A stretch of DNA of 64,000 nucleotides from Sulfurospirillum sp. UBA6810 (GTDB lineage: Bacteria > Campylobacterota > Campylobacteria > Campylobacterales > Sulfurospirillaceae): NCBI GenBank assembly GCA_002469305.1, contig DKEY01000016.1:72501-136500 (forward strand), read 5' to 3'. The notes below the pieces were generated by a model. That model was given only the letters and a program-made list of their open reading frames with translations, was not told the DNA's origin and made no database searches. Shown one piece after another: positions 25,982 to 46,164 of this stretch (position 1 is its first letter; every line of letters starts with the position of its first letter). The position numbers and the translations under genes are program-made.

Positions 25982-25993
25982 TGTAACGGGTAC
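25982..25993 (+). repeat. shufflon core site R1 (TGTAACGGGTAC)
   Basis: Exact 12-mer heading cassette S1. Confidence 0.85.
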
Positions 25994-26543: not shown

Positions 26544-26563
26544 TAGTCGATTATAAAGCATTA

Positions 26564-26575
26564 TGTAACGGGTAC
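26564..26575 (+). repeat. shufflon core site R2
   Basis: Exact 12-mer, 20 nt after the S1 stop, heading S2. Confidence 0.85.
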
Positions 26576-27083: not shown

Positions 27084-27095
27084 TGTAACGGGTAC
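27084..27095 (+). repeat. shufflon core site R3
   Basis: Exact 12-mer immediately after the S2 stop, heading S3. Confidence 0.85.
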
Positions 27096-27597
27096 TGTGA
27101 CTAATAGCTTATTAGATGCCGTACCTTGTAGTTATTCTGCTTGCTATAGTAACACAATAGCAAAAATGGCAAAAATAGGAATTAATAGTGACAATATTCT
27201 ATTATCTTATGATGGTACGTATTGGAAACAAAAAAGTAATTTTTCTTTATATGTTAAAAACCACACCATTGATGGCAACACATATACTACTGTTCAAAAC
27301 TTTGCATTAAAGCCTAGTTGGAGTGAAGGATGGGCATCAAGACCTATGCTTTGGTATGATAGCGGTCACTCTATTCAGTCAAAACTTAATGCATATAATT
27401 ACTGTGTTTCTTTAGAAAGAAAGATGATAACACTTTCTGAAAGTACAGCTGGCGGTGCAAATGGTGTGCCATATTATTATACATGGAATTGGTTTGATAA
27501 TGGAATTTTTACAGGGTACGGTACTCATCTCTACATGAATAGTAGCACAGGTGCCGTATATGCTACAGATGCTAAATATTTTAGATGTGCCAAGTAA
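27085..27597 (+). CDS. silent shufflon cassette S3 (divergent lectin-like class)
   Basis: VTGTVTNSLLDAVPCSYSACYS... ending YFRCAK. The first ~143 nt are nearly identical to S13, in inverted orientation. Confidence 0.8.
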   Translation, partial: VTGTVTNSLLDAVPCSYSACYSNTIAKMAKIGINSDNILLSYDGTYWKQKSNFSLYVKNHTIDGNTYTTVQNFALKPSWSEGWASRPMLWYDSGHSIQSKLNAYNYCVSLERKMITLSESTAGGANGVPYYYTWNWFDNGIFTGYGTHLYMNSSTGAVYATDAKYFRCAK

Positions 27598-27618: not shown

Positions 27619-28182
27619 CTATTGAGGAACACACAAAAATTGATTACCAATTGTCGTTGGACAACTAGCTATCTTATTATCGCTAGATAACTGGCAAGAG
27701 CTGCTTGGCGCAGCTCTTAGTTTCCAATTATCTTCACACCAAAATACCCTTTTTGGTGTCATAGAAAAATCACTTAATGTTGCGGTTATTTTTGTAGTAG
27801 GAATACCATACCCTAATATTGTAGAACACCCATATGAGCTATTAACATTGGGGGAAACTAGCCACCATGATGTGCAATGTCTTATTGTTTGATTGTTTAA
27901 AATAGGAACCGTACTACCATAGCCAACTGATATTTTTCCACTTGCATTACTACTTGTTTCTGTTAGCCAATTCCATCCATTATAGGGAGCTTTACTAAAA
28001 TGAGCCGTTTTGTATGGATATGCTATATCAGAGGTAAGCACCATAAAGTTATTCCAAGAAAAACCTGATAAGTTAAATAAGAAAAATCCACTATCCCCAT
28101 TTGATCCCAAGCTTATATCAAATAATGAATAGTGAGTACTTTTAGCATCCAACATAGAGTTAGTAATAGCCGTACCCGTTAC
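27619..28182 (-). CDS. silent shufflon cassette S4 (FLCVP class)
   Basis: VTGTAITNSMLDAKSTHYSLF... ending IGNQFLCVPQ. Shares identical 5' (~52 nt) and 3' (128 nt) blocks with S8. Confidence 0.8.
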   Translation of the reverse strand, partial: VTGTAITNSMLDAKSTHYSLFDISLGSNGDSGFFLFNLSGFSWNNFMVLTSDIAYPYKTAHFSKAPYNGWNWLTETSSNASGKISVGYGSTVPILNNQTIRHCTSWWLVSPNVNSSYGCSTILGYGIPTTKITATLSDFSMTPKRVFWCEDNWKLRAAPSSSCQLSSDNKIASCPTTIGNQFLCVPQ

Positions 28183-28183
28183 A
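28172..28183 (-). repeat. shufflon core site R4
   Basis: GTACCCGTTACA on the + strand, heading S4. Confidence 0.85.
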
Positions 28184-28191
28184 ACGCACTA

Positions 28192-28827
28192 CTATCTTAC
28201 ACAACGAACATATTTTTCTTCAGTCGCAGGTCTTCTGTCTCCACTGCTAGAATTTCTCCATACCCAATAATTTGATGTGCCACTTGTGCTTGTTGTTGAA
28301 GTCCATGTATATGCCTCAGAAAAGCTCGGGACTCCGCCTGATGTACCAGCAGAGCCACAAGGATTATATGAGCTATTTCCCTCAAGATGTGTTTCTGTAT
28401 ATGAAGGCAATCTCATTCCTCTAACGGCACAGATATTTGTGCTATTCATGTGTTCATTAACATAATTACACCCTGCTGTCACCCAAGTTGAAATACCAAA
28501 ATGAGTCAATGTGTATCTTATATTAAAAGGCGTACTTGTATCAGTATAATATAAGCCATTGCTTGCTTCTAGATATGATGTTTTTACAACTAATATATTT
28601 TCATTAGACTGAGAACCAAGAAGTAGCATATTGTCACTTAATCGTTCCCATTTAGATAGATAAGGCTTTCCTAATTCTGTATATCTAGCAACAACATCGG
28701 ATGAGTTTTTAAAGTAACCATATCCAATACTTCTTGCTAAAGCACATTCTCCACTTCCAGTGTATGCTGAGCAATTTGTTGTTACAAGCACAGCATCTAA
28801 TAAATAATTAGTCACCGTACCCGTTAC
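28192..28827 (-). CDS. silent shufflon cassette S5 (lectin-like class)
   Basis: VTGTVTNYLLDAVLVTTN... Contains CAVRGMRLPSYTET and ends YVRCVR. Confidence 0.8.
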   Translation of the reverse strand, partial: VTGTVTNYLLDAVLVTTNCSAYTGSGECALARSIGYGYFKNSSDVVARYTELGKPYLSKWERLSDNMLLLGSQSNENILVVKTSYLEASNGLYYTDTSTPFNIRYTLTHFGISTWVTAGCNYVNEHMNSTNICAVRGMRLPSYTETHLEGNSSYNPCGSAGTSGGVPSFSEAYTWTSTTSTSGTSNYWVWRNSSSGDRRPATEEKYVRCVR

Positions 28828-28828
28828 A
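28817..28828 (-). repeat. shufflon core site R5
   Basis: Exact reverse-complement 12-mer heading S5. Confidence 0.85.
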
Positions 28829-28833
28829 TATTA

Positions 28834-29424
28834 CTATTTATACCAAACATCAGTTCCATATGAAGAGCAAGAAGCTACTTTGCTGCTGTAAGGATAATAT
28901 TCATACCAACAGCCACTATATCCATATAACCAAGCTGAAGCAAATGAAGCTCCATCCAGTTTCCAATCCCTTAAAAGTTTATTTATGTTTGTGTCATATG
29001 TTAATGAATTGCATTCTGTTCTCCAGTTTAAAGGTATTTGCTCATAGCAATATTTATTATACCCCTTTGCTGTAATCGTAGAAGCTACATTATTGGAATC
29101 TCTATAAAGTGTAGAAGTTGAAAAGCTTCCATATGAAGATATCGCTTTATCATCAAATGTTTCATTTCCCCAAGTGGTAGCTATTGGCAACACATAATAG
29201 CCTGCATAACTTTGAGCTATAGCTTGAACGTAGGTAGTTGATGAACGAACTGTTAGGTCTTTATCAACTAAAGATGGGCCATAATACCAATAGTTACCAC
29301 TTTTAGTAATTAGTTTACTGTTTTTCAAAGCAACGCCAACGCTAATGGCATTACTATTGGTATATGGGTTATCAGTAACTAAAATTGCATCCAACATAGA
29401 GTTGGTAATTTTACTACCCGTTAC
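28834..29424 (-). CDS. silent shufflon cassette S6 (WYK class, related to the currently expressed tail)
   Basis: VTGSKITNSMLDAILVTDNPYTN... ending CSSYGTDVWYK. Preceded by the only degenerate core copy. Confidence 0.75.
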   Translation of the reverse strand, partial: VTGSKITNSMLDAILVTDNPYTNSNAISVGVALKNSKLITKSGNYWYYGPSLVDKDLTVRSSTTYVQAIAQSYAGYYVLPIATTWGNETFDDKAISSYGSFSTSTLYRDSNNVASTITAKGYNKYCYEQIPLNWRTECNSLTYDTNINKLLRDWKLDGASFASAWLYGYSGCWYEYYPYSSKVASCSSYGTDVWYK

Positions 29425-29425
29425 A
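29414..29425 (-). repeat. shufflon core site R6, degenerate (TGTAACGGGTAG)
   Basis: CTACCCGTTACA on the + strand. Single substitution at the last core position, changing VTGT to VTGS. Heads S6. Confidence 0.7.
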
Positions 29426-29920
29426 TTAGAAATTCTTATAGCATTTTATCTCATCTAAAAGTGGTGTTAAAGTGTCACATTTTGGAGAATAAGAATATTT
29501 TCCTTGTATTAACCTATAAGTACTTGCTTGGTCATTCATATAGGTATTCCCTGATGAGACAGCCCACTCTGATGTTATTGTTAAGCTAGGTGTAGTGTCT
29601 ATTCCATCTTGAAATAAGATTAAAGTTGCACCATTATAAACTCTTGCTGAAGAATAGCAGTCATTACATCCCACTTGTGTCCCTGTTGGTGATATTAGTA
29701 CCCACATAGGTGAACTATCAAGCCCATCTTGCCATACTTTAGCATATCCATCAGTTCTAGTTTTTTGGCACATTCCTGAAATATAAACAAAACCACTCCC
29801 ATATATATCGCAAGCATAAGTACTGTTGGGATTGTAGCATCTTAACATTGTATAATCTGGGGATAATCCATCCATAATACAAGGATTATCCAAAAGCCCG
29901 TTGGTGACAGTACCCGTTAC
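29426..29920 (-). CDS. silent shufflon cassette S7 (unique Cys-rich class)
   Basis: VTGTVTNGLLDNPCIMDG... ending IKCYKNF. Confidence 0.75.
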   Translation of the reverse strand, partial: VTGTVTNGLLDNPCIMDGLSPDYTMLRCYNPNSTYACDIYGSGFVYISGMCQKTRTDGYAKVWQDGLDSSPMWVLISPTGTQVGCNDCYSSARVYNGATLILFQDGIDTTPSLTITSEWAVSSGNTYMNDQASTYRLIQGKYSYSPKCDTLTPLLDEIKCYKNF

Positions 29921-29921
29921 A
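29910..29921 (-). repeat. shufflon core site R7
   Basis: Exact reverse-complement 12-mer heading S7. Confidence 0.85.
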
Positions 29922-29926
29922 TATTA

Positions 29927-30484
29927 CTAAGGAACACACAAAAATTGATTACCAATTGTCGTTGGACAACTAGCTATCTTATTATCGCTAGATAACTGGC
30001 AAGAGCTGCTTGGCGAAGCTCTTAGTTTCCAATTATCTTCACACCAAAATACCCTTTTATCAACAAAGGAATAATCATATATGTCTGAATATATCTTAGT
30101 AGTGGGGATGCCATATCCAAATAGTCCACCATCTCCAAAAGTGCTTATTGAGTTATTAGAAGCCATAAAGTCCATATTGGCATCTTTATAAATAGTTTGC
30201 TGTCCACCTATTGAAATTGTGCTTGCATATCCTACACCAGCATAAGAACTAGATGCATTATCTGTTATCCAATAAAAACCATTATGCGCAAACTTTCTTA
30301 TGTAAGATGTTTTATATGGATAAGATGAGTCTGCGGTTAAAAGTAAAAAATCTCTCCAGTTTGCATTATACCAACCAAAGACATACGCTCCATCTGTTCC
30401 ATTCACTCCTAAACCAATATTAAAAAAAGAGTAGTGAGTACTTTTAGCATCCAACATAGAGTTAGTAATAGCCGTACCCGTTAC
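29927..30484 (-). CDS. silent shufflon cassette S8 (FLCVP class)
   Basis: VTGTAITNSMLDAKSTHYSFF... ending IGNQFLCVP. Its ends are identical to S4 and its middle has diverged. Confidence 0.8.
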   Translation of the reverse strand, partial: VTGTAITNSMLDAKSTHYSFFNIGLGVNGTDGAYVFGWYNANWRDFLLLTADSSYPYKTSYIRKFAHNGFYWITDNASSSYAGVGYASTISIGGQQTIYKDANMDFMASNNSISTFGDGGLFGYGIPTTKIYSDIYDYSFVDKRVFWCEDNWKLRASPSSSCQLSSDNKIASCPTTIGNQFLCVP

Positions 30485-30485
30485 A
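30474..30485 (-). repeat. shufflon core site R8
   Basis: Exact reverse-complement 12-mer heading S8. Confidence 0.85.
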
Positions 30486-30487
30486 TT

Positions 30488-31168
30488 TTAAAATGCAAAT
30501 GTTATATTTAGTGTAAATGTACCATCTGCAAGAGTGCAAGACTCAATCCATTCTGCACCTATCGTAGTAAAATACTGTGAAGAAAATGAGCCACTCATGG
30601 AAACAGTTGAATATGTAGCACTTCTTTGTCTATCTCCATTTGCACCATACAAAGTACCCACCTGAGAACTGTATGGAATTGATGTCATATATGGAGCAGA
30701 AGAAACGAGAGATGGTTTTACATACATAAATGCTATATGGTTATATTCTCCGCAAGAAGCATACTGTGCCGCACTTTGTGTGGCTGAATAACTAAAACTT
30801 CTTACTTTTCCAAAATTAAATTGTTTTGCACCATACATATTTGTTTTATCTTGGTTTGATGCCGAATAGCTTGCTGTATATTTACAATTATTTGGACTTA
30901 TAAAGCTAAATGCTGGAGTAGCCTCCGTACATGCATTATAATATCCTGCATATGATGTTCCTATACTTCTTATTTGAGCAGTATTTCGTATAACCAAGTC
31001 TTTATCTATATAACTAGTTGTATTGTATTTGCTCCAGTAGTCTCCATTTTTTTCAATTAACTGATTTTCTTTTATAGCAATCCCTATGCTAATTGCTTCA
31101 TTATTAGTATAGGGATTATCTGTTACCAATATAGCATCAAGCAACCGATTGGTAACAGTACCCGTTAC
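30488..31168 (-). CDS. silent shufflon cassette S9 (unique class)
   Basis: VTGTVTNRLLDAILVTDNPYTNNEAIS... ending LNITFAF. N-terminal module shared with S6. Confidence 0.75.
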   Translation of the reverse strand, partial: VTGTVTNRLLDAILVTDNPYTNNEAISIGIAIKENQLIEKNGDYWSKYNTTSYIDKDLVIRNTAQIRSIGTSYAGYYNACTEATPAFSFISPNNCKYTASYSASNQDKTNMYGAKQFNFGKVRSFSYSATQSAAQYASCGEYNHIAFMYVKPSLVSSAPYMTSIPYSSQVGTLYGANGDRQRSATYSTVSMSGSFSSQYFTTIGAEWIESCTLADGTFTLNITFAF

Positions 31169-31169
31169 A
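31158..31169 (-). repeat. shufflon core site R9
   Basis: Exact reverse-complement 12-mer heading S9. Confidence 0.85.
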
Positions 31170-31775
31170 TCACCTTACACAACGTATATAGTAAGTATTA
31201 TCATAAGCGTTATTATCACCTGTTGATGTCCATCTGTAATAATATTTTGTATCTGATTTATGACTAGTGGCGGTCCATGTTCTTCCGCTAGGATGTTGAG
31301 GAACGCCGAGAGAGCTCCCTGCACTAGAACAGGGGTTATTGCTGTTTGTATTTGTAGCAGATGTTTCGTCATACCTTGGCAACCTCATTCCTCTAATAGC
31401 ACAAATATTTGTGCTATTCATATTGTCATTGACATAATTACAAGTAGCAGAAGCCCAGTTAGCAACTCCAAATTCACCATTAAGACTTTTGCCCACTCCA
31501 AAAACACCTGATGTTTTGGTATAATACAGTCCATTTCCTGCCTGAGCAAAAATATCTGATACTACGCTAGATAAAGACAAACCTTCTTCGTTATTTTTAA
31601 AGTTCAAAACATTCCCATTACTAGGGAAATACCAAATTTTATAATTAGACAACTCAACGTGCTTTCCATTAGTGGTTATTGCATGTTTTATACTTTTAGC
31701 ATTATCGCAACCTTCTTGTCCAGCAAATAAACAAAGGGCACCATCTAACATATTATTAGTAACCGTACCCGTTAC
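31170..31775 (-). CDS. silent shufflon cassette S10 (lectin-like class)
   Basis: VTGTVTNNMLDGALC... Contains CAIRGMRLPRYDET and ends YIRCVR. C-terminal half parallels S5. Confidence 0.8.
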   Translation of the reverse strand, partial: VTGTVTNNMLDGALCLFAGQEGCDNAKSIKHAITTNGKHVELSNYKIWYFPSNGNVLNFKNNEEGLSLSSVVSDIFAQAGNGLYYTKTSGVFGVGKSLNGEFGVANWASATCNYVNDNMNSTNICAIRGMRLPRYDETSATNTNSNNPCSSAGSSLGVPQHPSGRTWTATSHKSDTKYYYRWTSTGDNNAYDNTYYIRCVR

Positions 31776-31776
31776 A
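31765..31776 (-). repeat. shufflon core site R10
   Basis: Exact reverse-complement 12-mer heading S10. Confidence 0.85.
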
Positions 31777-31783
31777 AACTCAA

Positions 31784-32287
31784 CTAAAAAGAATTAATAC
31801 AATCATTATTTGAAAAAGCTTTAATAGTAGAATCCTCTCTTGTGCAAAAATGATGCTGATAACCAGTAGAAGAAACATTCGCATAAGAACAGTCATACCA
31901 AGAATAGGAACTGCTACATCCTGAACTTGTGCATTTTACAAAAGAAGGTCGAATATTTATATTTGAAGAAATCCACCCAGTCCCATATTGTGTATCTGCC
32001 TTAATATGAGAAGGATTGTTTTCATAAAAAGAATATGATTCTAATACAATATTACTGTAAATTACTTTGTTGATATTTTTACACTGAGTGGTTGAACTAT
32101 ATACCCAAGTTTTTGTTAAATATCCACTACCATTGTCATAATACAAAAACAAACCATCTCTGTTAATTATCTTATTGTTAAAAACAAATTTAGGAACGCT
32201 AGAGTACGTTCTGCTAGTAGAATAGCAATTATTTTCACTTGTGCAAAGTACGGCATCTAACAACCGATTGGTAACAGTACCCGTTAC
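31784..32287 (-). CDS. silent shufflon cassette S11 (unique Cys-rich class)
   Basis: VTGTVTNRLLDAVLCTSENNCYS... ending NNDCINSF. Confidence 0.75.
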   Translation of the reverse strand, partial: VTGTVTNRLLDAVLCTSENNCYSTSRTYSSVPKFVFNNKIINRDGLFLYYDNGSGYLTKTWVYSSTTQCKNINKVIYSNIVLESYSFYENNPSHIKADTQYGTGWISSNINIRPSFVKCTSSGCSSSYSWYDCSYANVSSTGYQHHFCTREDSTIKAFSNNDCINSF

Positions 32288-32288
32288 A
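32277..32288 (-). repeat. shufflon core site R11
   Basis: Exact reverse-complement 12-mer heading S11. Confidence 0.85.
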
Positions 32289-32303
32289 ACTTAAACTTGT
32301 GGC

Positions 32304-32795
32304 TTATTTTACACAACGGATATAAATATAAGCATCTGTTCTATATGGATATTCACTTACACCACTATAACAAGCAGAATAATAAGATGCGGAATAAGGA
32401 GAGGTCCATGTCCATGTAGTACAAGATGGTACACCATTTGTATTTCCATCAAGTTTAGATTGTGCTCTTGTAACCATGCTCATACCTTTGTCGGTACAAT
32501 ATGTTGTACTTGGACCATATTGTTTTTGTCCTCCTTGACACTTATCATAGAGAAGCCCATTCCCAGCAACACCATCTATCTCTGATTTTGTTCCACGCCA
32601 AGAGGAAAATGTATTATCTAATACTTGTGTGACATTGCTAATCGGTGACCAAAAAACACCATCATACTTGGCAACGATATTATTTTTATATCCATAACCG
32701 ACATTCCTAGCTAAAACTGAATTAGATGTGCCATTGTAGGCGTTATCAGTAAAAAGTACGGCATCCAAAAGGTAGTTTGTCACAGTACCCGTTAC
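32304..32795 (-). CDS. silent shufflon cassette S12 (lectin-like class)
   Basis: VTGTVTNYLLDAVLFTDNAYNG... Contains CTDKGMSM and ends YIRCVK. Confidence 0.8.
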   Translation of the reverse strand, partial: VTGTVTNYLLDAVLFTDNAYNGTSNSVLARNVGYGYKNNIVAKYDGVFWSPISNVTQVLDNTFSSWRGTKSEIDGVAGNGLLYDKCQGGQKQYGPSTTYCTDKGMSMVTRAQSKLDGNTNGVPSCTTWTWTSPYSASYYSACYSGVSEYPYRTDAYIYIRCVK

Positions 32796-32796
32796 A
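32785..32796 (-). repeat. shufflon core site R12
   Basis: Exact reverse-complement 12-mer heading S12. Confidence 0.85.
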
Positions 32797-32811
32797 ACTT
32801 AAACTTGTGGC

Positions 32812-33360
32812 TTATTTTACACAACGAAGATACAAGCTATATCCATCATGAATCCAATATCCTTGCTCCCCGCTATTATTCCATCCTAAAATATTTGGAT
32901 AAGGTGTATTTGCTATATAGTTTATGTAAGTATGTGCCCCTATTCCACCGCTAGACACAATAGGAGGTACTCCATTTGTTATCGCAAAAGTTGTTTCTGT
33001 TTTTAAAGGAACTCGCCATCCTATATTTGTGCATTGTTGAAAAGCCGAGGCATAGTTTAAAGTTGAATAATATCCTTTATTATCTGTATACCAGAGACTA
33101 GGTCCAGAAGCCCATCCAATGCCACCACTAGGCTGTAGGGCTTCTTTGCTAATTGAAGTATAGGAATTTCCAGTAATGGTGTGGTCTTTAACATATAAAG
33201 AAGAATTGTTTTTCTGTGTCCAATACGTACCATCATAAGATAATAGAACATTGTCACTATTAATTCCTATTTTTGCCATTTTTGCTATTGTGTTACTATA
33301 GCAAGCAGAATAACTACAAGGTACGGCATCTAATAAGCTATTAGTCACAGTACCCGTTAC
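32812..33360 (-). CDS. silent shufflon cassette S13 (lectin-like class)
   Basis: VTGTVTNSLLDAVPCSYSACYS... Contains CTNIGWRVPLKTET and ends YLRCVK. Confidence 0.8.
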   Translation of the reverse strand, partial: VTGTVTNSLLDAVPCSYSACYSNTIAKMAKIGINSDNVLLSYDGTYWTQKNNSSLYVKDHTITGNSYTSISKEALQPSGGIGWASGPSLWYTDNKGYYSTLNYASAFQQCTNIGWRVPLKTETTFAITNGVPPIVSSGGIGAHTYINYIANTPYPNILGWNNSGEQGYWIHDGYSLYLRCVK

Positions 33361-33361
33361 A
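33350..33361 (-). repeat. shufflon core site R13
   Basis: Exact reverse-complement 12-mer heading S13, 5 nt after the stop of the expressed gene. Confidence 0.85.
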
Positions 33362-33366: not shown

Positions 33367-36018
33367 CTATTTATACCAAACATCACTTCCTGCTGTGTTA
33401 CAAGAAGCTGTTGCATTTGCTTTTGTTGAATAAAATCCTCTACAGCTATAGCCTCCACTTTGTGTAACTGAGCTGTTCGGAATTTCAGAGATTGGATTAG
33501 AGCATGAGAAAAGTTGTCCGAAAGTAAAAATATTTACACCATTTACATAAACAAGACATCTTACAGTATCACCTGAGATATTATATGCACATGGATTCGT
33601 AATAGCCCAATTACTTAAATATGTTGCTCCACTACTATACCAATTTTTAGATGTCGTTGTATTGCTATTTAATACATTTGTTTCATAGCAATATTTACTA
33701 TAACCCTTTGATGTAATAGTGCCTATGACATTGTTAGAATCAATATAAATATCTGTTAAGGAAAATCCCCAAGCACTTTGAGCTTTATCATCGAAGTCTT
33801 CAGCTCCCCAAGTTGAAGCAACGGGCTTGGCATCCAACAATCGATTTGTCACCGTACCCGTTACAGAGTAGTACCATTGTTTCGCAGATGGGTTGTTTAC
33901 ATATGCTATACCGCCATCTAAATAGTTATTTGCAGGTGTCCCTGTGTAATTTGTTTCAGTGCCAGTATTAAGTGTTAAGTTTATTCTTGTACTGTTACTA
34001 GGTGCGCTTAAGTCTTCCCTTGAACCATCTGTTATTGCATAAGCTGTACTTGACTCATTAGCACAATCACTTGACCAGACTTTTTGACCTGAGGAATAAG
34101 TAGTATATCCTGAGTCTCTACAGTACTCAAGAGCCGATGTAATTCCCTCACCACTTAAATAAACTTTATATCCCACTAAAGAACTAGGCACTACTGACAC
34201 AAATTGATTTAAGCTTGTAGTGTTTATTTTTTGATTTACACCTGTGCCATTAAAACTTGCCATATTTACACCTGTGCAAGTTCTATCAAGTAGATTATTG
34301 CCTAAATGGTCTTGGACAACTACAGCTGCTTGTGTAACAAAATTCCCATCATATGTGTAACATACGGAACCATTTACAAGAGATGGGTATTTTAATATAA
34401 CACTTCCTGCAGGCACATTGCCTGAAGTATTTTGAATTAAATGAGCAGCTCCATTGCTAGAATAAGCATTTGCTACGCTTGAAACAGGAATTGCATCTGT
34501 AAGCAGGTTTTTAACATTTAAAGCACTCGGAGCGAAATAAAAAGGATACATATTATCAGTAAGTTCGCCTGCATAAGTGCCATCCGTTCCATTACATGTG
34601 CCTATTGAACAATCAGACACATTTATAAAATATGTTACACCTGTTGCTAAATCTGAAAAAATATCTCTTCCATTTACATGATTGCTCACTTGATGAATAC
34701 CGTCAGTAGAAGTCCAAATACTGTTTGATAAATAATAGTATTTATTTTGAGAAACAACGTAAGCATACACTCCATCATTTCCAGACTGAGAAGCATCATT
34801 AAACTCAAAAATATCCTCTAAAGTATCAGCTTGGTATATCCATACATTTGTCTCACCTGATACAGCAACATTTCCTTTTATCAGCTTATCAATGCCTCCT
34901 GTTTTATTTGCAATCCAAGCAGTTGTACCACTTGCAAACAAGTCAGATAGAGTAGAAAGAGCTGAAATATCTTTAGTAACCACAAAAGAGTTGCTTGGAA
35001 CTACCCAATAACCACCTGTTTCATAATCATCTTTTTTAGTAAAATCTAAACTTCCACCGAACTCCCCATTAGGCGCAGATGATGAAACTACAGAACCACC
35101 CGATTTGTCAAATAAAGAAGTAGCCATTAACAAAACCGTTCCTGTACCGTTATATAGTCCACCTGCGGAACTTCCACCATCCATATTGTGTTCGACCCAT
35201 TTATCACCGTTATGAGTATAAAACTTTATAACATCATCTATCTCAACTTTGGCACATAACCCTCTAGTTCCTGGTGTTGTATCTTCATTAAAATTTGACT
35301 CTTGAGTAAAAAATAGATTTCCAGTACAACCATCAGATGTGGTTTTTGTTGCATTTTCGCCACCAACTGTTCCAAGTTTGATGTACTCTCCTGTATTTGG
35401 ATCCCATCCATACACATCTAGTCCACCATTTCCATTTGGCACAAAATACTGTTTGCCCTCTTCCCCTGGATTTGGCAAATCAGAGATGTTTGATACAAGT
35501 ATTTTATCTGGATCGGAATTGATATCTTCAATAATATCTAATATTGTTTGAGTCTCTTGAGGTATGTTGATATAAAATGTTGAATAATCTGATGAAATCT
35601 TTTGGTTTGGTTCTAAAAATAAACTCGTATTAAAAAGTCTTTTGATATCATCGTTGACACCCGTTAAAACATTTTTGAGTGAAATTTTGCCATCAGCAAG
35701 TTCTATCGTGATACCACCTGACTCTCCACAGTAAGAGCCAGAGACATCACAAGGTTCATTTAATAAAGTTGTAAATTTTGCATTGACTATTATAGAGTTA
35801 AATGTTTGAAGCTCTGCTCTAGTTGGTGTTGCGTCCCCTGTATTGTTTATGTAACCAACTATTTCATTTAATAAAAAAGTTAATCTTTTGACATATTCAT
35901 CTATAGTTGCTTGTCTATCTTGTTCTAGCATTGTACCTGTAACTGAGGCATTAGAGAATGTCAGAACAGATACTATCATTATGATTGATAAAAATGATTT
36001 AAAAGCCTTGTTTTTCAT
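33367..36018 (-). CDS. 883-aa secreted protein: 718-aa constant part plus exchangeable 165-aa C-terminal tail (candidate pilus-associated adhesin, functional analogue of R64 PilV)
   Basis: Sec-type signal MKNKAFKSFLSIIMIVSVLTFSNA. In-frame core site at codons 719-722 (YYSVTGTVTNRLLDAKP). Tail ends CNTAGSDVWYK. Own promoter-like motif 36048..36078. Directly downstream of the pilus operon. Confidence 0.85.
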   Translation of the reverse strand: MKNKAFKSFLSIIMIVSVLTFSNASVTGTMLEQDRQATIDEYVKRLTFLLNEIVGYINNTGDATPTRAELQTFNSIIVNAKFTTLLNEPCDVSGSYCGESGGITIELADGKISLKNVLTGVNDDIKRLFNTSLFLEPNQKISSDYSTFYINIPQETQTILDIIEDINSDPDKILVSNISDLPNPGEEGKQYFVPNGNGGLDVYGWDPNTGEYIKLGTVGGENATKTTSDGCTGNLFFTQESNFNEDTTPGTRGLCAKVEIDDVIKFYTHNGDKWVEHNMDGGSSAGGLYNGTGTVLLMATSLFDKSGGSVVSSSAPNGEFGGSLDFTKKDDYETGGYWVVPSNSFVVTKDISALSTLSDLFASGTTAWIANKTGGIDKLIKGNVAVSGETNVWIYQADTLEDIFEFNDASQSGNDGVYAYVVSQNKYYYLSNSIWTSTDGIHQVSNHVNGRDIFSDLATGVTYFINVSDCSIGTCNGTDGTYAGELTDNMYPFYFAPSALNVKNLLTDAIPVSSVANAYSSNGAAHLIQNTSGNVPAGSVILKYPSLVNGSVCYTYDGNFVTQAAVVVQDHLGNNLLDRTCTGVNMASFNGTGVNQKINTTSLNQFVSVVPSSLVGYKVYLSGEGITSALEYCRDSGYTTYSSGQKVWSSDCANESSTAYAITDGSREDLSAPSNSTRINLTLNTGTETNYTGTPANNYLDGGIAYVNNPSAKQWYYSVTGTVTNRLLDAKPVASTWGAEDFDDKAQSAWGFSLTDIYIDSNNVIGTITSKGYSKYCYETNVLNSNTTTSKNWYSSGATYLSNWAITNPCAYNISGDTVRCLVYVNGVNIFTFGQLFSCSNPISEIPNSSVTQSGGYSCRGFYSTKANATASCNTAGSDVWYK
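33854..33865 (-). repeat. shufflon core site R14, the active site inside the 883-aa gene
   Basis: Exact reverse-complement 12-mer in frame at codons 719-722 of 33367..36018. Confidence 0.85.
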
Positions 36019-36047: not shown

Positions 36048-36078
36048 TATAATAAATTTATAATTAAATAAGGCTTAA
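36048..36078 (-). promoter_or_regulatory. conserved promoter/operator-like motif P8 (in front of the adhesin gene)
   Basis: TTAAGCCTTATTTAATTATAAATTTATTATA. 29 nt upstream of ATG 36018. Overlaps the stop of 36075... Confidence 0.55.
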
Positions 36079-37049
36079 TTTATGGCAATATTTAGGGAAG
36101 TAGATAAACTCTCTGTTTCTGATAACTTTTCTGTATCACTCATAAAAGAAAAATTTTCATAGACGACATCTTCAACAAGAGTATTCAATTCAGCAGGAGA
36201 GACTTCTTTGATATAGTTTTTTAATTCCGCATTCAAAGAACCATACTCTATTTTTTTTATAATTCCCCTCAAGACACCTTTTGTGAGACTTGCTAGTAAT
36301 TGCTCCCTCTCTTCAGAGCTTATTACATCTCCTCCAACTTCATACTGTTTTGAGAGATATGCAACGCGGTTTAAAATAGTAAAAATTTTTGTAGTTGAAT
36401 CATATCTTGGTAAAAGTGCTGATGCAAAAGCAGCTTTACCAAACTCTTTATTTACAAGGTACTCATTTGTTTGTTCTAGTCTTTGCTCATAAAGAATTTT
36501 TCTTTTTTTCTTATAAGTATCAAGTTTTTCATCACTTGATTTAATTATTGTAACTGTTTCACCATCTACTGTTCCATTTTTTAAGATAGAGCTAACTTTG
36601 GTCCCTTGTTCCCCTCTCGCACTAAATGTAACTTTATCTGCTTCTACTTGCAAGAAAGAGGTGTCTTTTGATACTATTGTATTACACTCTTCTAAAGTAA
36701 TTTTATTCGTAGCCACTAAATCTGCGCACGTTGGCGTACCTTGTATATTTCCTTTTAAGTAAATTTTTACCGCTTCGCTGTATTTATTTAAAAGCAATCC
36801 ATCTTGATCTGAAAAATCATCATCATAAACCACTAATTCACTTGGCTTAACTCCATTTTGGAATAAAGACCTCGTTCCATCACCACTTTCATTAAAATAA
36901 ATTTGATTATATTTATGAGCTTCATTTGCTTTTTCAATAGTTTTTTGTGCTCTTTTCTCTGAAAATAAATCATTTACATCTTCTATACTTATTAAAGCAT
37001 CCCCTATCAAAAAAACAACAAGACTTATAAGTAAAAATGGAAATGGCAT
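36075..37049 (-). CDS. membrane-anchored hypothetical protein (start moved to MPFPFLL)
   Basis: AAGGAAAG RBS before the ATG at 37049. N-terminal hydrophobic anchor FPFLLISLVVFLIG. Part of the pilus operon. Confidence 0.55.
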   Translation of the reverse strand: MPFPFLLISLVVFLIGDALISIEDVNDLFSEKRAQKTIEKANEAHKYNQIYFNESGDGTRSLFQNGVKPSELVVYDDDFSDQDGLLLNKYSEAVKIYLKGNIQGTPTCADLVATNKITLEECNTIVSKDTSFLQVEADKVTFSARGEQGTKVSSILKNGTVDGETVTIIKSSDEKLDTYKKKRKILYEQRLEQTNEYLVNKEFGKAAFASALLPRYDSTTKIFTILNRVAYLSKQYEVGGDVISSEEREQLLASLTKGVLRGIIKKIEYGSLNAELKNYIKEVSPAELNTLVEDVVYENFSFMSDTEKLSETESLSTSLNIAIN

Positions 37050-37059
37050 TTTTCTTTCC

Positions 37060-37656
37060 TTACTTCTCAAACACAAATAAAATCATATTATCTGTATCGG
37101 TTCCACCCTCTGTATCAAAAGATGTTGCTTTGTCATTATAACTTTTTAAAATCGTGTCATAATTGTTTTTATAGTAAGACAAAAAGTCATATTCTAGCCC
37201 CTCAGATAAGGACAGAGGCAAGTCAGAACAATCGATAAAAACTTCGAAGCTTTTCGAGTTATTACTATCCTCTTGATAATACTTTCTGCAACCTTTACCC
37301 GTATTTCCCCATGTAACCATATACTCAAAATACGATTTAGTACCATCTTTTTCATCGGTTTCAGAAGAGCCTGTGTAAACCATATCGTGATTAGATAGTG
37401 TTGAGCAATTTGCTATTCTATAAGCGGTCATATCATTGTAGTAACCAAGCATAGAACAACTAGAATTTCTTTTGCTAACATACCCTATAAAAGGGTTAAA
37501 TATACCTGTTTCTAACTCTTTTCCACTATCATCAAACATTTTTTCTACTGCATTTTCATAACGCATAGCATGTATTTTACCAACAGCGAAATAGGAAAGA
37601 ATACCAATAATAACCAATACAAAAGTAAGCTCCACAAGAGTCATACCTTTTCTCAT
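37060..37656 (-). CDS. type IV prepilin-like protein (minor pilin/pseudopilin candidate)
   Basis: Class III signal MRKG|MTLVELTFVLVIIGILSYFAV with Glu at +5. ATGA overlap with the ATPase gene. Confidence 0.8.
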   Translation of the reverse strand: MRKGMTLVELTFVLVIIGILSYFAVGKIHAMRYENAVEKMFDDSGKELETGIFNPFIGYVSKRNSSCSMLGYYNDMTAYRIANCSTLSNHDMVYTGSSETDEKDGTKSYFEYMVTWGNTGKGCRKYYQEDSNNSKSFEVFIDCSDLPLSLSEGLEYDFLSYYKNNYDTILKSYNDKATSFDTEGGTDTDNMILFVFEK

Positions 37657-39611
37657 GATGCAGCCTTTTTGTTCATCTCTTCTGCGATAGCTTTAATTTT
37701 CTCTATTTGAGCTCCTAGCACACCCTCGTAAACCGCCTTACTTATTTTGCCATCTTTATATTTTTGTCTTGCCACATCTTCTGCGCTTCTATAAATAATA
37801 GCTCCACTAGCAATAAGTTTATCAAAGTCTTTAGAAGGGTTGCAATCTAGTGGCACTTTGCCAGGAATTAAATAGGCAAGCTCATATATAAGCTCTCTAT
37901 CATGGCTACCTGTTCCAAAACAATTTTCGCATACAACTTCTTTACCATTCTCTGCTAATTTTCCTGTACCTTTGCATTTTGGACATAAGGCAGGTACGAG
38001 CCTATGGTGCAAAAGTGTTCTCAAAAGAGGAAGATAAGAGACTGGCTTTAATCCCGCATTATCTAAAACGGTAAAAATAGACCGAACATCATTTGTATGC
38101 ACAGAGAAAGCCATTAAACGTCCTCTAGCTGCTCCATTTACTGCTGCTACTATTTCATCAGCACCTCTTACCTCTCCAACAATTAGTCCATCAACATACT
38201 GCTTTAACATAAAGTTAACCGCTTTAGTGATGGTTACTTTTTTCTCTTCTTTTGAGGCCCTTTTTGTGTCATCAGTAGCTATTTGTCTAAAGCCCTTATG
38301 TTGAAATTCAACTGAGCTATCAATTGTAACAATTTGTGCATCATGGTTATCATGTAGATCTGCAAAAATTGAAGAGAGAGCCGTAGACTTCCCTGAACTT
38401 GGAGGACCAGCAACAATGTTACAACCAACATGTAACTGCTCATCATTAATCATAGCAGAGTGGATGATTTTTAAATCTTCTGGATAATAGCCTATTTCAT
38501 CAATTTTTCTTAGTGAGTCACCTGAATCTAAAAGACGGATATGAATACTTCTTGCAAAATCTTGGTGGCCATGTGCTCTGCTTGATATATACTGTCTTGC
38601 CATACTCACACGAAATGTTTTATCTCCAATAGGAATATCTGTGTAATCCTCCCCTGTTCTATCAAAAGAGCCTTTATGGATGGTTCCACTTACATCAAAC
38701 TCTTGATTATTTGTATTTTCCCCTATGTCGATTAAAAGAGCTTGGATAATCAATTTTGCATCAGAGTTTGTAAAAGCATCTTTGCCTAAACATATTTTTT
38801 TACCATTTTTTACAGCCCACATTGACCATAGAGCATCATCATATTGATAAATTAATAAATCTGAATAGTTATGTGTTGCAATATAGGCATATAGATTGGC
38901 TGTTGAAATTTTGTTTGTTTTTCTGTCAATAATATCTAACTTATCTTGTGTGCCAAATTGCTTTTGGGCAACATCTGGACCAATGAAGACCATTTCATCA
39001 TAATAAAATGGAGCAATCGCAGGAGTGGGGTAAAAAATGCCTATCATTTTTTTTCCTTTATTCCATGCTTTTTTGCCTGTTCCCAATACCATATAATGTC
39101 TTTTTAAAATCTTATACTTTTCTGCATTTCTCTCTTTGTTTTCCATTGCAACATTAGATGAGTCTAAATCATTCTCAGAATGCTTATCCCCTTTCCTTAC
39201 ATACAAAAAGGCATCTTCAATAGCTCTGGTGTCTTTTAAATCCCAATCACTTGTAATTGCAGAGTAAGTTTTGTAATAAATTCTAGAATTTGCCAAAAGT
39301 TCTACTTCACTACTAGCCTCATTAACAGCATTTTTTATCATCTCAAGTCTCTCTGGAGTCTTGTTGTTGATAACTTTAGCATACTCTTCCATCATCTTTC
39401 TGTGTTCAATGGAATTATCTAAAAAAGCAGCTATCCCAGCTATATTCCCTTTTTTATTTTTTTTGAAATAATTGTTTATTATCTGCTCTGTTTTCCCATG
39501 AATTTCTATCGAGCTCTTATTTTCAGAAGATGGTTGAGCTTTCTTCTCAGAACCCCATTGACTAATCACTCTTCCTGCGGCGTTAATTAATTTTATTAGA
39601 CTATTTTTCAT
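37653..39611 (-). CDS. GspE/PilB-family type IV pilus assembly ATPase
   Basis: Walker A GPPSSGKST, Walker B region DGLIVGEVRGADE, His box FSVHTNDV, tetracysteine CPKCKGTG...CENCFGTG. Confidence 0.9.
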   Translation of the reverse strand: MKNSLIKLINAAGRVISQWGSEKKAQPSSENKSSIEIHGKTEQIINNYFKKNKKGNIAGIAAFLDNSIEHRKMMEEYAKVINNKTPERLEMIKNAVNEASSEVELLANSRIYYKTYSAITSDWDLKDTRAIEDAFLYVRKGDKHSENDLDSSNVAMENKERNAEKYKILKRHYMVLGTGKKAWNKGKKMIGIFYPTPAIAPFYYDEMVFIGPDVAQKQFGTQDKLDIIDRKTNKISTANLYAYIATHNYSDLLIYQYDDALWSMWAVKNGKKICLGKDAFTNSDAKLIIQALLIDIGENTNNQEFDVSGTIHKGSFDRTGEDYTDIPIGDKTFRVSMARQYISSRAHGHQDFARSIHIRLLDSGDSLRKIDEIGYYPEDLKIIHSAMINDEQLHVGCNIVAGPPSSGKSTALSSIFADLHDNHDAQIVTIDSSVEFQHKGFRQIATDDTKRASKEEKKVTITKAVNFMLKQYVDGLIVGEVRGADEIVAAVNGAARGRLMAFSVHTNDVRSIFTVLDNAGLKPVSYLPLLRTLLHHRLVPALCPKCKGTGKLAENGKEVVCENCFGTGSHDRELIYELAYLIPGKVPLDCNPSKDFDKLIASGAIIYRSAEDVARQKYKDGKISKAVYEGVLGAQIEKIKAIAEEMNKKAAS

Positions 39612-40173
39612 TATTCTTCTTTGCCTCTAGTTTGAAGTAGACCAAAACAGAAGAGTTATCAACCTCTCTTAGTTCTCCAACAATTTTTGGTAAAGTTTTA
39701 GACTCTTTTAAAAGAGAATGCAACAAATTATTTGCTGCCTTAAACCCATCTTTAAAGCCATAAATCCAATCAACTTGTTTATACTTAATGGTAACAAGTG
39801 CAAGATTGAAATATTTTGGGGATATTTCTACTTTTTCTACCGTAACGTAAAAAGGAGAAAAGCCATATTTTCTTTGTGTTTTATTTTTCAAATCTTCATC
39901 AATGAGTTTTTGAAAATCTTTCTTAAGCTCATCCATGTCATATTCATAGGAAAGTATCATTTTCAAATATGGCTCTGCTTCCTTGATATTTGCATCAAGA
40001 ACGGTAAGACGTTGACTTAAAGATTTATGTGTATTTCTAGCCTCATTACCTCGCACATTTTTATAGTTGATAAAAAACTTTACAGAAAAAAACAGAACCA
40101 TTAAAACAGATAAAAAGACCATCGCTATAATAGCAACTGCTTTTCTTCTGCTTTTCAAAGAGTTTATTGTCAT
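39601..40173 (-). CDS. bitopic pilus-assembly accessory protein candidate (190 aa)
   Basis: Single N-terminal TM AVAIIAMVFLSVLMVLFF. Overlaps both neighbours in the operon. Confidence 0.5.
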   Translation of the reverse strand: MTINSLKSRRKAVAIIAMVFLSVLMVLFFSVKFFINYKNVRGNEARNTHKSLSQRLTVLDANIKEAEPYLKMILSYEYDMDELKKDFQKLIDEDLKNKTQRKYGFSPFYVTVEKVEISPKYFNLALVTIKYKQVDWIYGFKDGFKAANNLLHSLLKESKTLPKIVGELREVDNSSVLVYFKLEAKKNNEK

Positions 40174-41018
40174 TGGTAAACCTCTTTTTTTATTTTAAGT
40201 TTTTCTTGAGCATCTTTAAAAGTTTGCTCTTTCTTTCTTACATCTATTTCCTTAGTGGCAATCTGTTTGTTTAAATCAGAAACCTCTTTTCTCTCTTTTT
40301 CTAAAAAATAGCTAGGTACATGCAAACCCAATATAAAAACAGAAATAAGAGGTAAAATAAGGGGTATAAAATACTGATTTAACACATTCGATTGGTACTC
40401 TTTTTTTGTTTGAACAGGTATTGTTAAATCGAACAAGGTTTTAATGCTTTTCAAATCTAAGAAAGTTACCTCTTTGAAATTAAAAAATCTTGATTTCTGA
40501 GAACCAATAAAAATTATTTTTTCCGCATATCCAGAATAAACTGCTAAGATATCTTGTATTCTTGATTCAATCACATTTGGGCGTTCCCACTCAGGATCAC
40601 TAGCCCTTGCTTGAAAATAGGCAGGAGGAATAAAGGTATCGTAAGGATTGTTAGTTTTTATAAAAAAATACTCGATTTTTGTATTATCTTCCACACCAAA
40701 AACTACCAATGAAATCTCATTCTTGTAAAGCTTTTTATATGTTCTCACTAAATCGTAAATAGAGTATTTTGCTTTTTCGCCATCAATAATTTGGATAATG
40801 TTTTCTTCTTTATCCTCTTTTACCATTTTCCCTATAAAGTCCTCTTTGGGAGAATCCATATAATTTCTATAACTCATTACTTCTGGCAATACAATATCAT
40901 CAATAGATATTTCTACTTTTTTTAAAGTTGGGACCACAGACTCTAAAAAAGAGATAACTTGTGAAAATTTATAGCCTACTTGTAAAAAAGGTCTATATGC
41001 TTTTTTTGCTGTTTGCAT
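40170..41018 (-). CDS. hypothetical protein with C-terminal TM segment and coiled coil (282 aa)
   Basis: Operon position between the platform and ATPase genes. TM segment YFIPLILPLISVFILGLHV. Confidence 0.5.
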   Translation of the reverse strand: MQTAKKAYRPFLQVGYKFSQVISFLESVVPTLKKVEISIDDIVLPEVMSYRNYMDSPKEDFIGKMVKEDKEENIIQIIDGEKAKYSIYDLVRTYKKLYKNEISLVVFGVEDNTKIEYFFIKTNNPYDTFIPPAYFQARASDPEWERPNVIESRIQDILAVYSGYAEKIIFIGSQKSRFFNFKEVTFLDLKSIKTLFDLTIPVQTKKEYQSNVLNQYFIPLILPLISVFILGLHVPSYFLEKERKEVSDLNKQIATKEIDVRKKEQTFKDAQEKLKIKKEVYQ

Positions 41019-41019
41019 T

Positions 41020-42135
41020 TTATTTACTCCCGATTTTTTCTGCTAAGTCTCTAATAGTGTCAAGATTGTTCATAAGCGTATAATAAAAAGTTAATATAAA
41101 GCCAAAAAATATACTATACCAATACCAAGAGAGAATATTTTTTAGCCCTATTCCAAACTTCTTTTTAAGTAGAAAATTTAACCTTGTATCAATTGTCTTA
41201 TCGCAGTATTCTAACAACCAATCAATAGGAGTGATTGAATTGTTTTTAGACTCTTTTTTTGTGCTTCTAATATAAGAAGATGCCTCATAAAGAGTATCAG
41301 ACTTTTCATGTGCTTCAAAAAAGCTTGTGATATCATAAGGGATATTAAACCTTCTAAAGAGCTTAGAAAAAGAAGTAAAAGTGTCATTTTTTCCAACCGC
41401 AAACATTTTTCTAATCCCTACAGGAGAGGCATAAACACTCAATGTTTTTGCCATGCTTACATCATTTAAACCTTTTTCTGAGTATATTTGAAGAGATTTT
41501 AAGATATTTGGAAAATCTTCATACGCTTTTAAAGGGAATAGCTCATAAAGTCTTTGCAGATCACTCTTCTCTAAATGCTTATAGTAAGCAATAAATGAAA
41601 CATATGCTATCAATACAAAAAATCCAAAAGCAATTAAATACTCTGGATGGTTCATAAAAGCAAAAAAATCTAATTCTTTGGCACCATTTTTCTTTACTTT
41701 ATTTGCCATATCAGACAAAAATAGTACAAATTTATAAGAAAAGAGTCCTGCTAAAATAGGAACTATTACCGTAACCAAAAAAGGAAGAGTAGTTGTACTT
41801 CGAAACGCCTCTTTAATTCTATTATTTCCCTCTCTAAGAGACAAAATGATATCAATAGCTTTTGCAAAATCATCGACTTCATCTAGTAACTTATACTCAG
41901 ATTGTGTTATCAAGTTGTATTTATAAAATACTTGAGCAAGTGGCTCTAGCCTTCTAATATGAAGTGTTTTCATCTCACTTAAAAGATTTCTTCTAGCGCC
42001 GACTTCTGTTCCAATAAGTGCATCAAATATATTTTCTATGCTACGTCCACTACTTGCATAAGTAGCCATATTTGTTAGAATGAGACTTGACTCACTTTTG
42101 ACGAACTTGTCATTACGAAAGAAACCAAAAAGCAT
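41020..42135 (-). CDS. GspF/PilC-like inner-membrane platform protein candidate
   Basis: 371 aa with three hydrophobic segments separating two soluble regions. Sits in the operon with the ATPase, secretin and pilins. Assignment by architecture only. Confidence 0.5.
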   Translation of the reverse strand: MLFGFFRNDKFVKSESSLILTNMATYASSGRSIENIFDALIGTEVGARRNLLSEMKTLHIRRLEPLAQVFYKYNLITQSEYKLLDEVDDFAKAIDIILSLREGNNRIKEAFRSTTTLPFLVTVIVPILAGLFSYKFVLFLSDMANKVKKNGAKELDFFAFMNHPEYLIAFGFFVLIAYVSFIAYYKHLEKSDLQRLYELFPLKAYEDFPNILKSLQIYSEKGLNDVSMAKTLSVYASPVGIRKMFAVGKNDTFTSFSKLFRRFNIPYDITSFFEAHEKSDTLYEASSYIRSTKKESKNNSITPIDWLLEYCDKTIDTRLNFLLKKKFGIGLKNILSWYWYSIFFGFILTFYYTLMNNLDTIRDLAEKIGSK

Positions 42136-42816: not shown

Positions 42817-42832
42817 TGATTATCCCTTTAAA

Positions 42833-42859
42833 ATAAGACGAGGTAAAACCTCGTCTTAT
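42833..42859 (-). terminator. intrinsic terminator/attenuator hairpin after the major pilin gene
   Basis: Minus-strand ATAAGACGAGG-TTTTA-CCTCGTCTTAT (11-bp stem) followed by TTTTAAA. Lies between the pilin stop (42868) and the next start (42816). Confidence 0.6.
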
Positions 42860-42867
42860 ATCTTTAT

Positions 42868-43921: not shown

Positions 43922-43928
43922 TCTAACC

Positions 43929-46140: not shown

Positions 46141-46164
46141 TATTGCTTCCTTTGTAAATCCATT

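Follow-up and report, generated by a model that had tools for sequence, protein, structure and literature searches.

Can a single gene exchange its 3′ end for any of a set of silent 3′ ends stored beside it, and if so, at which nucleotides is the exchange made? This question is raised by a stretch of 64,000 nucleotides (nt), called the window here, from Sulfurospirillum sp. UBA6810 (GenBank assembly GCA_002469305.1, contig DKEY01000016.1, positions 72,501 to 136,500). It contains the gene of an 883-amino-acid (aa) secreted protein (open reading frame [ORF] 33367-36018, minus strand), the last gene of a type IV pilus operon, and the 7.9 kb between a recombinase operon and a junction inside this gene are a seamless array of 13 silent C-terminal cassettes. 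An earlier reading of the same letters, referred to as the original prediction, had placed a 12-nt recombination core in frame at the boundary of the constant and variable parts of the gene. Our data make it very probable that the locus is a multiple-inversion switch (shufflon) for the C-terminal domain of the 883-aa protein, a domain that is presumably receptor binding, as judged by analogy. Of the features by which shufflons are broadly defined, the window has at least three sites in both orientations and one expression site, and an inversion that changes the product was seen in a pair of sister loci (L013/L014).

The core, TGTAACGGGTAC, is window 33854-33865 read on the minus strand, and its 14 copies in the window comprise 13 exact ones and one with a single mismatch (29414, ...TAG). 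A search with up to 2 mismatches returned 15 matches against 1.3 expected by chance; the additional match, at 12867, has 2 mismatches, lies inside a giant ORF, and was rejected as a chance match. Three copies are in plus orientation (25982, 26564, and 27084) and 11, including the expressed one, in minus orientation. As predicted, the active copy sits in the context ...KQWYYS-VTGT-VTNRLLDAKPVAS... of the 883-aa ORF, and VTG(T/S) followed by xTNx(L/M)LD is encoded by all 14 copies, with one extra codon in 28172, 29414, and 30474 (VTGT-A-ITNSMLD or VTGS-K-ITNSMLD). Each core opens an ORF of 163 to 226 codons in the VTG(T/S) frame, and between its stop and the following core there are 0 to 21 nt. 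Since all copies thus share the frame of an open cassette, exchange at the core would always give an in-frame fusion, as had been claimed. The cassettes themselves are only 16 to 56% identical in pairwise comparison. An independent repeat finder returned the same repeat families, and promoter and terminator scans over the array gave no useful excess over shuffled controls.

The constant part of the gene (33866..36018, minus strand) has a ribosome-binding site (aaggag), a Sec-type signal peptide, and a stalk, and ends ...KQWYYS. It is followed by the expressed core with its (S)VTGT peptide (33854..33865, minus strand) and by the expressed variable cassette (33367..33853, minus strand), whose frame of 165 aa is counted from the VTGT codons of the core at 33864. 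Ten silent cassettes have the orientation of the expressed gene (27619..33361, minus strand; cores at 28172, 28817, 29414 [TAG], 29910, 30474, 31158, 31765, 32277, 32785, and 33350), and three are inverted (25982..27597, plus strand; cores at 25982, 26564, and 27084); the latter are the sole direct inversion partners of the expressed core. The cassettes at 27085-27597 and 27619-28182 stand tail to tail and mark the single point of convergence.

Is the core conserved as DNA or as peptide? We aligned 21 sites, of which the window contributed 14, L007 six, and L006 one; L006 and L007 are metagenome contigs that otherwise have no DNA similarity to the window. Core positions 1 to 11 are identical in all 21 sites, and position 12 is C in 19. 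GTA-ACG-GGT is found in 14 of 14 window copies. Because the three wobble bases of the core are invariant and the rare codon ACG (5.7% of Thr codons in the element) is always used, the core is constrained as DNA, as an element of 11 to 12 nt. The protein itself provides an internal control, since SVTGT occurs a second time at residues 25 to 29, written tca-gtt-aca-ggt-aca. This second copy (window 35932-35946, minus strand) starts the mature N terminus of the protein in common codons; with 3 mismatches and different codons, it was rejected as a 15th core. The flanks behave differently from the core. In the 30 nt on the 5′ side, every position has about 1 bit or less, and on the 3′ side conservation extends to about +24 nt but is confined to codon positions 1 and 2, with 0.1 to 1.0 bit at the wobble positions and Leu codons alternating between TTR and CTN. 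Such codon periodicity reflects the peptide xTNx(L/M)LD and not a recombinase-binding arm; hence, the 3′ "arm" of about 24 nt is a protein-level linker. The asymmetry of the flanks, a central point of the original prediction, is thus seen in the bit scores, but its conserved side cannot be read as an arm, and since in a relative (L016, see below) the 5′ flank is conserved too, asymmetry does not characterize the family. WYYS-V(T/S)G(T/S)-xTNxLLD would then be a structural linker held by selection on the protein, and the 11- to 12-nt core alone would be held by selection on DNA. An inverted-repeat model of the site (GTAAC-N7-GTnAC) was rejected, as it fits neither L007 nor the three window copies in which a codon is added.

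A core variant ending in G (CGGGTAG, peptide ..GS) occurs in four independent elements (window 29414-29425, minus strand; L007:917-928; L011:946; L014:8890). Therefore, the last core position tolerates C or G, and it may be the edge of the exchanged region.

Which enzyme could act on the core? The recombinase gene of the locus (24096..25196, minus strand) encodes a tyrosine recombinase of 366 aa, the presumed shufflon invertase, with matches to Pfam Phage_integrase (8e-20) and Phage_int_SAM_3. Its catalytic residues R219, K246, H310, R313, H336, and Y345 are invariant in 44 homologues and, together with the preceding SAM-like core-binding domain, place it in the tyrosine (lambda-Int/Xer) superfamily. 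PDB profile matches were XerC-like, XerD, and XerA. The AlphaFold2 (AF2) model, with a predicted local distance difference test (pLDDT) score of 88, has a three-strand sheet plus helix at residues 17 to 74; the core-binding and the catalytic domain come next, and the chain stops 21 residues past Tyr345, without a C-terminal extension. Best Foldseek matches were Tn1549 Int, XerA, and full-length lambda Int, and IntI4 was matched as well; as modeled, the N-terminal domain is of the lambda-Int/Tn916 type. Similarity to Rci of plasmid R64 is limited to the catalytic domain (BLASTP, 22% identity over 188 aa, E 1e-5), and the enzyme is not Rci-like. About 45 homologues were found at 39 to 67% identity, the named ones from Sulfurimonas, Aliarcobacter butzleri, and Arcobacter, and a search of PLSDB with the recombinase gave no relative above 28% identity.

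Where the DNA of relatives reached far enough, cassettes lie beside the homologous recombinase, on the opposite strand. This holds for the six other source sequences examined, with a recombinase 61 to 67% identical to that of the window (L011, L013, L014, L016-L019, and L020), and in all of these the cassettes start xCG-GGT-ACn, followed by ..N.LLD. The cores read aaTTCGGGTAC in L011, tgTTTCGGGTAC in L013 and L014, ttcTTCGGGTAC in L016-L019, and tagTTCGGGTAC in L020; what they have in common with the window core, TGTAA-CGGGTAC, is the 7-mer CGGGTAC (33854-33860 of the expressed core, given on the plus strand). In an exhaustive HMMER search, 86 related clusters were found, of which about 40 are full length and carry (K/Y)(Q/E)W(F/Y)YS-x-(S/T)-G-(T/S)-x(1-4)-N-x-(L/M)-(L/V)-D. 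Many of the profile matches end at the junction motif, and small proteins, which are silent cassettes called as genes, start there. The recombinase family co-occurs with cassette arrays in at least five unrelated genomic contexts. Scans of GTDB gave nothing comparable: the pattern of core plus flank had no match in the contigs of species representatives, and a degenerate-peptide scan of the species representatives returned no confirmed relative.

Two groups of relatives have rearranged, and the ends of the rearrangements fall on the core. L013 and L014 are Arcobacter sp. assemblies (JBEGDI010000001.1 and CP182343.1) with an identical recombinase and flanks that are 99.97 to 99.99% identical. 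L013:7786-9700 and L014:7411-9755 differ by an inversion of the segment that runs from the expressed core to the second of the inverted silent cores, by which the fused cassette changes. The junctions are reciprocal (constant 5′ flank plus c body; d-tail 5′ flank plus a body), and the exchange interval is the 26 nt common to both sites. Here, the expressed gene encodes a 1790-aa RHS-repeat protein that ends FKQWYYS-VSGT-VVNNLLD; its last ~500 constant residues, the C-terminal stalk, are homologous to residues 184 to 735 of the 883-aa protein (E 6e-31). The invertible part of L014 is about 98% identical to that of L013, with many indels that resemble a blend of two cassettes, and it looks like the consensus of a mixed population. 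L016-L019 are scaffolds of the ENA BOEU19 metagenome, each with the array in its first ~2.1 kb, flanks that are 99.6 to 99.8% identical, and a recombinase 67% identical to that of the window. On the side of the recombinase, one unique 5′ flank leads into a different cassette in each of L016, L017, and L019; therefore, exchange in this series is confined to the 12-nt TTCTTCGGGTAC. The repeats are longer here (~45 nt), and in the silent copies of L016 about 14 nt of the 5′ flank are conserved as well (gtagcaaaattctt-CGGGTAC). Crossovers in relatives thus fall on the core, to a resolution of 12 nt or, less closely, 26 nt; the only variant junction of the element itself (L023, see below) is ambiguous in this respect.

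The recombinase family recurs near giant RHS-repeat/YD-shell proteins (L013:1-8301 and L016:4482-10724). In L013 and L014, the target of the shufflon is this RHS protein, with stalk, junction, and cassettes homologous to those of the window. In L016-L019, there is no core in the neighboring 2080-aa RHS protein, which looks like unrelated cargo.

Our model of the switch is as follows. The expression site would supply promoter, ribosome-binding site, signal peptide, and stalk up to ...KQWYYS, and each of the thirteen promoterless cassettes would offer the same 12-bp core in the same frame. The adjacent tyrosine recombinase would pair two inverted cores and exchange their strands, the most probable place being the 7-bp CGGGTAC of the core that is common to the recombinase family, and thereby invert the DNA in between. 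Whenever the expressed core is one of the partners, a different cassette would be fused in frame.

The original prediction had drawn attention to the 11 copies in direct orientation; they are no anomaly and follow necessarily from the design. With only one core per cassette, placed 5′, the array is bound to have two convergent blocks, and two blocks are indeed present in every complete array (window, 3+/11−; L007, 3/3; L013, 1/3; L014, 2/3). In simulation, inversion leaves this layout of one plus block followed by one minus block unchanged, and the expressed position always keeps the right orientation. The three plus cassettes become expressible after one inversion and the ten minus cassettes after two, and the number of reachable arrangements is 2 × (n−1)!, about 2 × 13! 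here. The two cassettes that meet tail to tail where the blocks converge (27085-27597 and 27619-28182) are permanently linked and rarely expressed in the simulation.

What keeps the cassettes from being deleted between direct cores is a different matter. In the inversion-only model of R64, this relies on the asymmetry of the sfx site and on the C-terminal extension of Rci (PMC11852207), and the account of R64 in the original prediction agrees with that summary. Its transfer to the present locus is not justified by our data: the enzyme is without the Rci C-terminal domain, the 3′ conservation is at the protein level, L016 has a conserved 5′ flank, and a cassette (c′) was gained or lost in the L013/L014 pair. 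The survival of 14 intact cassettes argues that deletion between direct cores is strongly disfavored, and an arm-type N-terminal domain or the co-transcribed helix-turn-helix (HTH) protein might be what suppresses it.

Could the cassettes instead be exchanged by general recombination? In a scenario of RecA-dependent homologous recombination or gene conversion at the cassette starts, in the style of pilE/pilS or of the orphan tips of Rhs/CdiA, the recombinase would be an unrelated integrase of the element. The surroundings of the cores are conserved over 35 to 45 nt at about 80 to 88% identity, and some relatives are fused to RHS-repeat proteins, known carriers of orphan C-terminal modules. A single core pair has the length needed for homologous recombination, that of cassettes 27084(+) and 33350(−), whose starts form an inverted repeat of 275 nt with 86% identity, of which the first 113 nt are identical (window 27083-27357 and 33088-33362), and the only variant junction of the element on record involves this very pair. 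Around the other 32 of the 33 inverted core pairs, however, perfect identity extends over 11 to 19 nt (median, 13 nt), and the expressed core shares 12 to 15 nt with each of its three inverted partners. Efficient homologous recombination in Escherichia coli by RecA has a minimum of about 25 nt. The 19 nt at most that 32 of the 33 pairs share are too short for RecA-dependent exchange. Furthermore, the invariance of wobble bases stops sharply at the 12-mer, where conversion tracts would homogenize longer and more variable stretches; the recombinase family accompanies the arrays in all the unrelated contexts mentioned; the L016 series limits exchange to 12 nt; and there are no immunity genes between the cassettes. 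We consider general recombination unlikely for these reasons, and still a little less likely is a static fossil, in which inactive paralogous pseudo-cassettes would have retained the core merely by recent duplication. With the exception of L023, all data sets of the exact element do show one arrangement wherever it can be determined. However, 14 of 14 cassettes are open with an exact core while their bodies are 16 to 56% identical, the same 12-mer is found exactly in L006 and L007, which have no other DNA similarity, the recombinase is intact, and sister loci rearrange.

A more serious competitor, if still a doubtful one, is an integron-like mode, in which the recombinase cuts cassettes out as circles at direct cores and puts them back in at either the expressed or the recombinase-proximal core, instead of inversion or, more plausibly, besides it. 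Most cores are direct repeats, and the fold of the enzyme is nearest to integrating and excising enzymes (Tn1549 Int and lambda Int, with IntI4 also matched). L016 and L019 have the same cassettes in the same orientation but in another order (X1-X6 versus X5 X4 X1 X6), and the paralogous cassettes 28172/30474 (56% identity) and 27084/33350 (49%) suggest duplication. On the other hand, the inverted block is made up of intact, in-frame cassettes, which could never be expressed without inversion; L013 and L014 differ by a clean reciprocal inversion; repeated inversions also lead to reordering in the same orientation; no attC-like folded sites are evident; and the retention of 14 cassettes argues that deletion is rare. 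The original prediction had named deletion between direct copies as a check. In the relatives, L014 has one cassette (c′) more than L013, bounded exactly by direct cores and in the recombinase-proximal position, a difference in favor of the integron-like mode; at least one insertion or deletion at direct cores must therefore have taken place. The 14 cassettes of the window were retained.

Several observations weigh against a shufflon that works by inversion at the core. The comparisons within L013/L014 and within L016-L019 are between assemblies and not between reads of one culture, and the exchange interval they define is resolved to 12 nt (L016 series) or 26 nt (L013/L014) at best. For the element itself, contigs were found by exact-protein look-ups (L001-L004, L009, and L010); all are 100% collinear with the window, and those that reach the array stop at or near repeats, with L001, L004, and L009 ending 30 nt into the repeat, which is k−1 for the assembler. 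No isomer of the window's own expression junction was found, and the 883-aa protein is the only fusion on record; at each core that they span, contigs from SRR5324008 and from JGI 3300002596 match the window. The one deviating contig, L023 (Logan SRR1290764_137375), comes from another sample. It follows window 26253-27195 with 100% identity and continues, equally identical, as 33362-32782 of the opposite strand, so that the tail of the 26564 cassette is joined through a core to the body of the 33350 cassette. An inversion between cores 27084(+) and 33350(−) would give just this product; for the reciprocal junction, the record has no gene with the corresponding product. The parental sites share 113 nt of perfect identity, from 1 nt before the core, which is more than the assembler k-mer, and L023 is therefore ambiguous: core exchange, a variant array, homologous recombination, or a de Bruijn path artifact would explain it alike. 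As for the function, the 883-aa protein has no N_methyl/prepilin motif and no similarity to PilV of R64, and its link to the pilus is one of gene order alone. A single cassette matches Lcl_C (PF07603), weakly and below threshold (E 6e-4), and the AF2 model of a cassette (alignment of 8 sequences) has a pLDDT of 45 and is unusable, which leaves the fold unpredicted.

What, then, would be switched? The 883-aa protein has no match in Pfam or NCBIfam. Its cassettes are domains of 160 to 226 aa that are rich in Cys, and about half of them end ...Y(V/I/L/F)RC(V/A/I)(K/R). No immunity-like genes were found between the cassettes of the window array, and for this reason, and by analogy with PilV, they are more likely a receptor-binding tip than a toxin. 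The closest full-length homologue is P0002 of L005 (Logan SRR8925775_15637), with 32% identity and in the same pilus operon. Its junction (L005:11720-11760) reads QWFYS-SSGG-ITTNDMLD and is encoded by agt tca ggt ggt, the core having diverged; the contig breaks off 5 nt past the end of the gene, and probably it is the next repeat that interrupts it.

The type IV pilus-like operon immediately before the variable gene (36075..48592, minus strand) has the same gene order as in L005 and encodes a PilN-family secretin (43929-45689), prepilins (42868-43473 and 37060-37656), a platform protein (41020-42135), and a T2SSE ATPase (37653-39611). At the other end of the locus, the recombinase start is overlapped by the gene of an XRE-type HTH protein of 101 aa (25193..25498, minus strand), and a second HTH_3 protein of 77 aa (25620..25853, minus strand) lies between the recombinase operon and the first cassette. 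A small ORF is also present upstream of homologous recombinases, with a weak or faint HTH_3 match in L011 and L020; that of L016 gave no HTH_3 match. The window also has a MobA/VirD2-type relaxase and topoisomerase III, which, together with the pilus operon and an ORF of 3583 aa, identify the element as conjugative, in a Campylobacterota host that is like Arcobacter or Sulfurimonas. The 3583-aa ORF (window 10463-21214, minus strand) is probably a large fusion protein of a kind common on conjugative elements; in L021, a metagenome-assembled genome of Sulfurimonas, a 3580-aa counterpart with Eco57I methylase, SNF2/ResIII helicase, and acetyltransferase domains adjoins a homologous recombinase.

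In-frame recombination cores at the boundary of constant and variable parts are well known, from R64 pilV, the tail fibers of Mu and P1, vsa of Mycoplasma pulmonis, and hsdS shufflons. What appears to be new here is the recombinase clade, the core sequence, the single-ended two-block architecture, the size of the array, and the host phylum, and also that one module is coupled to both a conjugative pilus protein and RHS-type giants. Our literature search found no paper linking shufflons with Arcobacter, Sulfurimonas, or Campylobacterota, and a systematic survey of inversions makes no mention of Arcobacter (PMC9881135). As a speculation that goes well beyond the locus, we tentatively put forward an undescribed family of tip-swapping systems in Campylobacterota, in which a lambda-Int-type, heterobivalent-looking recombinase would act on the 7-bp CGGGTAC, inverting and less often excising or inserting single-ended cassettes. 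It would be a hybrid of shufflon and integron acting on protein C termini, selective for inversion without the C-terminal domain of Rci, possibly by means of its N-terminal arm-type domain and the HTH protein, and coupled to conjugative type IV pili and giant RHS-repeat proteins.

If the switch operates as we propose, it is among the largest programmed C-terminal switches, with 14 alternative tips and a recombinase clade unrelated to Rci. In Campylobacterota from the environment and from food (Arcobacter, Aliarcobacter, and Sulfurimonas), it would probably determine which recipients or surfaces a conjugative pilus recognizes and, in relatives, do so for giant RHS-type surface proteins. Furthermore, it would offer a natural comparison for how a tyrosine recombinase keeps long arrays of direct sites undeleted, a problem solved in R64 by site asymmetry plus a C-terminal domain. 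The invertase and its very short core are possibly an orthogonal pair, useful for synthetic shufflons and barcoding (PMC11852207). The family also explains recurrent assembly breaks and consensus errors at such loci.

Among known systems, the shufflon of R64 (IncI1; read as NC_005014) is closest in plan. In both, a conjugative element carries a type IV pilus operon whose last gene contains cores in frame, and the gene of a tyrosine recombinase with the same orientation comes after it, so that the order is pilus operon, variable gene, cassettes, and recombinase; one expression site serves alternative C termini, and the conserved side of the site faces the variable part, with the constant side not conserved among silent copies. 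The parts, however, differ. Rci runs about 110 aa past the catalytic Tyr, compared to 21 aa in the present enzyme, which has a lambda-Int-like N-terminal domain as judged from the model, and the core CGGGTAC is unrelated to GTGCCAA plus TCCGGT... of R64. An sfx site consists of a 7-bp spacer and a conserved 12-bp right arm, with a left arm that is not conserved; here, in a formally similar way, 11 to 12 invariant nt stand between a 5′ flank without conservation and a conserved 3′ flank, but the latter is conserved at the protein level. The target in R64, PilV, the adhesin of the thin type IVb pilus, is a prepilin-type minor pilin (PF04917), in contrast to a protein with a Sec-type signal peptide, and its 4 double-ended segments with sites in the order + − + − + + − stand against 14 single-ended cassettes in two convergent blocks. 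The host phyla differ as well.

In Mycoplasma pulmonis vsa (HvsR, vrs sites) and in vpma/vsp of M. agalactiae and M. bovis (Xer1), an Xer-like tyrosine recombinase carries out inversion only, one expression site is served by promoterless silent genes or gene parts in both orientations, each of which opens with a short site, and in vsa this site lies inside the coding sequence. The single expression site, the many promoterless silent units in both orientations, and the adjacent tyrosine recombinase all recur at the present locus. Nearly the whole lipoprotein after a short leader is swapped in the mycoplasmas, compared to the last 160 to 220 residues of 883 here, and site sequence, protein family, host, and mobile-element context are different. 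The invertases Gin (gix) of Mu, Cin of P1, and Min of p15B are serine recombinases in which a Fis-dependent enhancer enforces inversion, Min being a multi-site system. As in our locus, an in-frame crossover site splits a constant N-terminal part from alternative C termini, which are receptor binding in these phage systems, but the sole recombinase in the window locus is of the tyrosine type. Rhs and CdiA, finally, have orphan C-terminal toxin modules behind the boundary motifs PxxxxDPxGL and VENN. They have in common with the present locus a peptide motif at the constant/variable boundary, downstream arrays of alternative C-terminal modules, and, in some members of the family described here, the fusion to RHS repeats. 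What sets the present locus apart from them is that there are no immunity genes, that the cassettes stand in both orientations next to a dedicated recombinase, and that a core constrained as DNA is the place where, in a sister locus, a reciprocal inversion has occurred.

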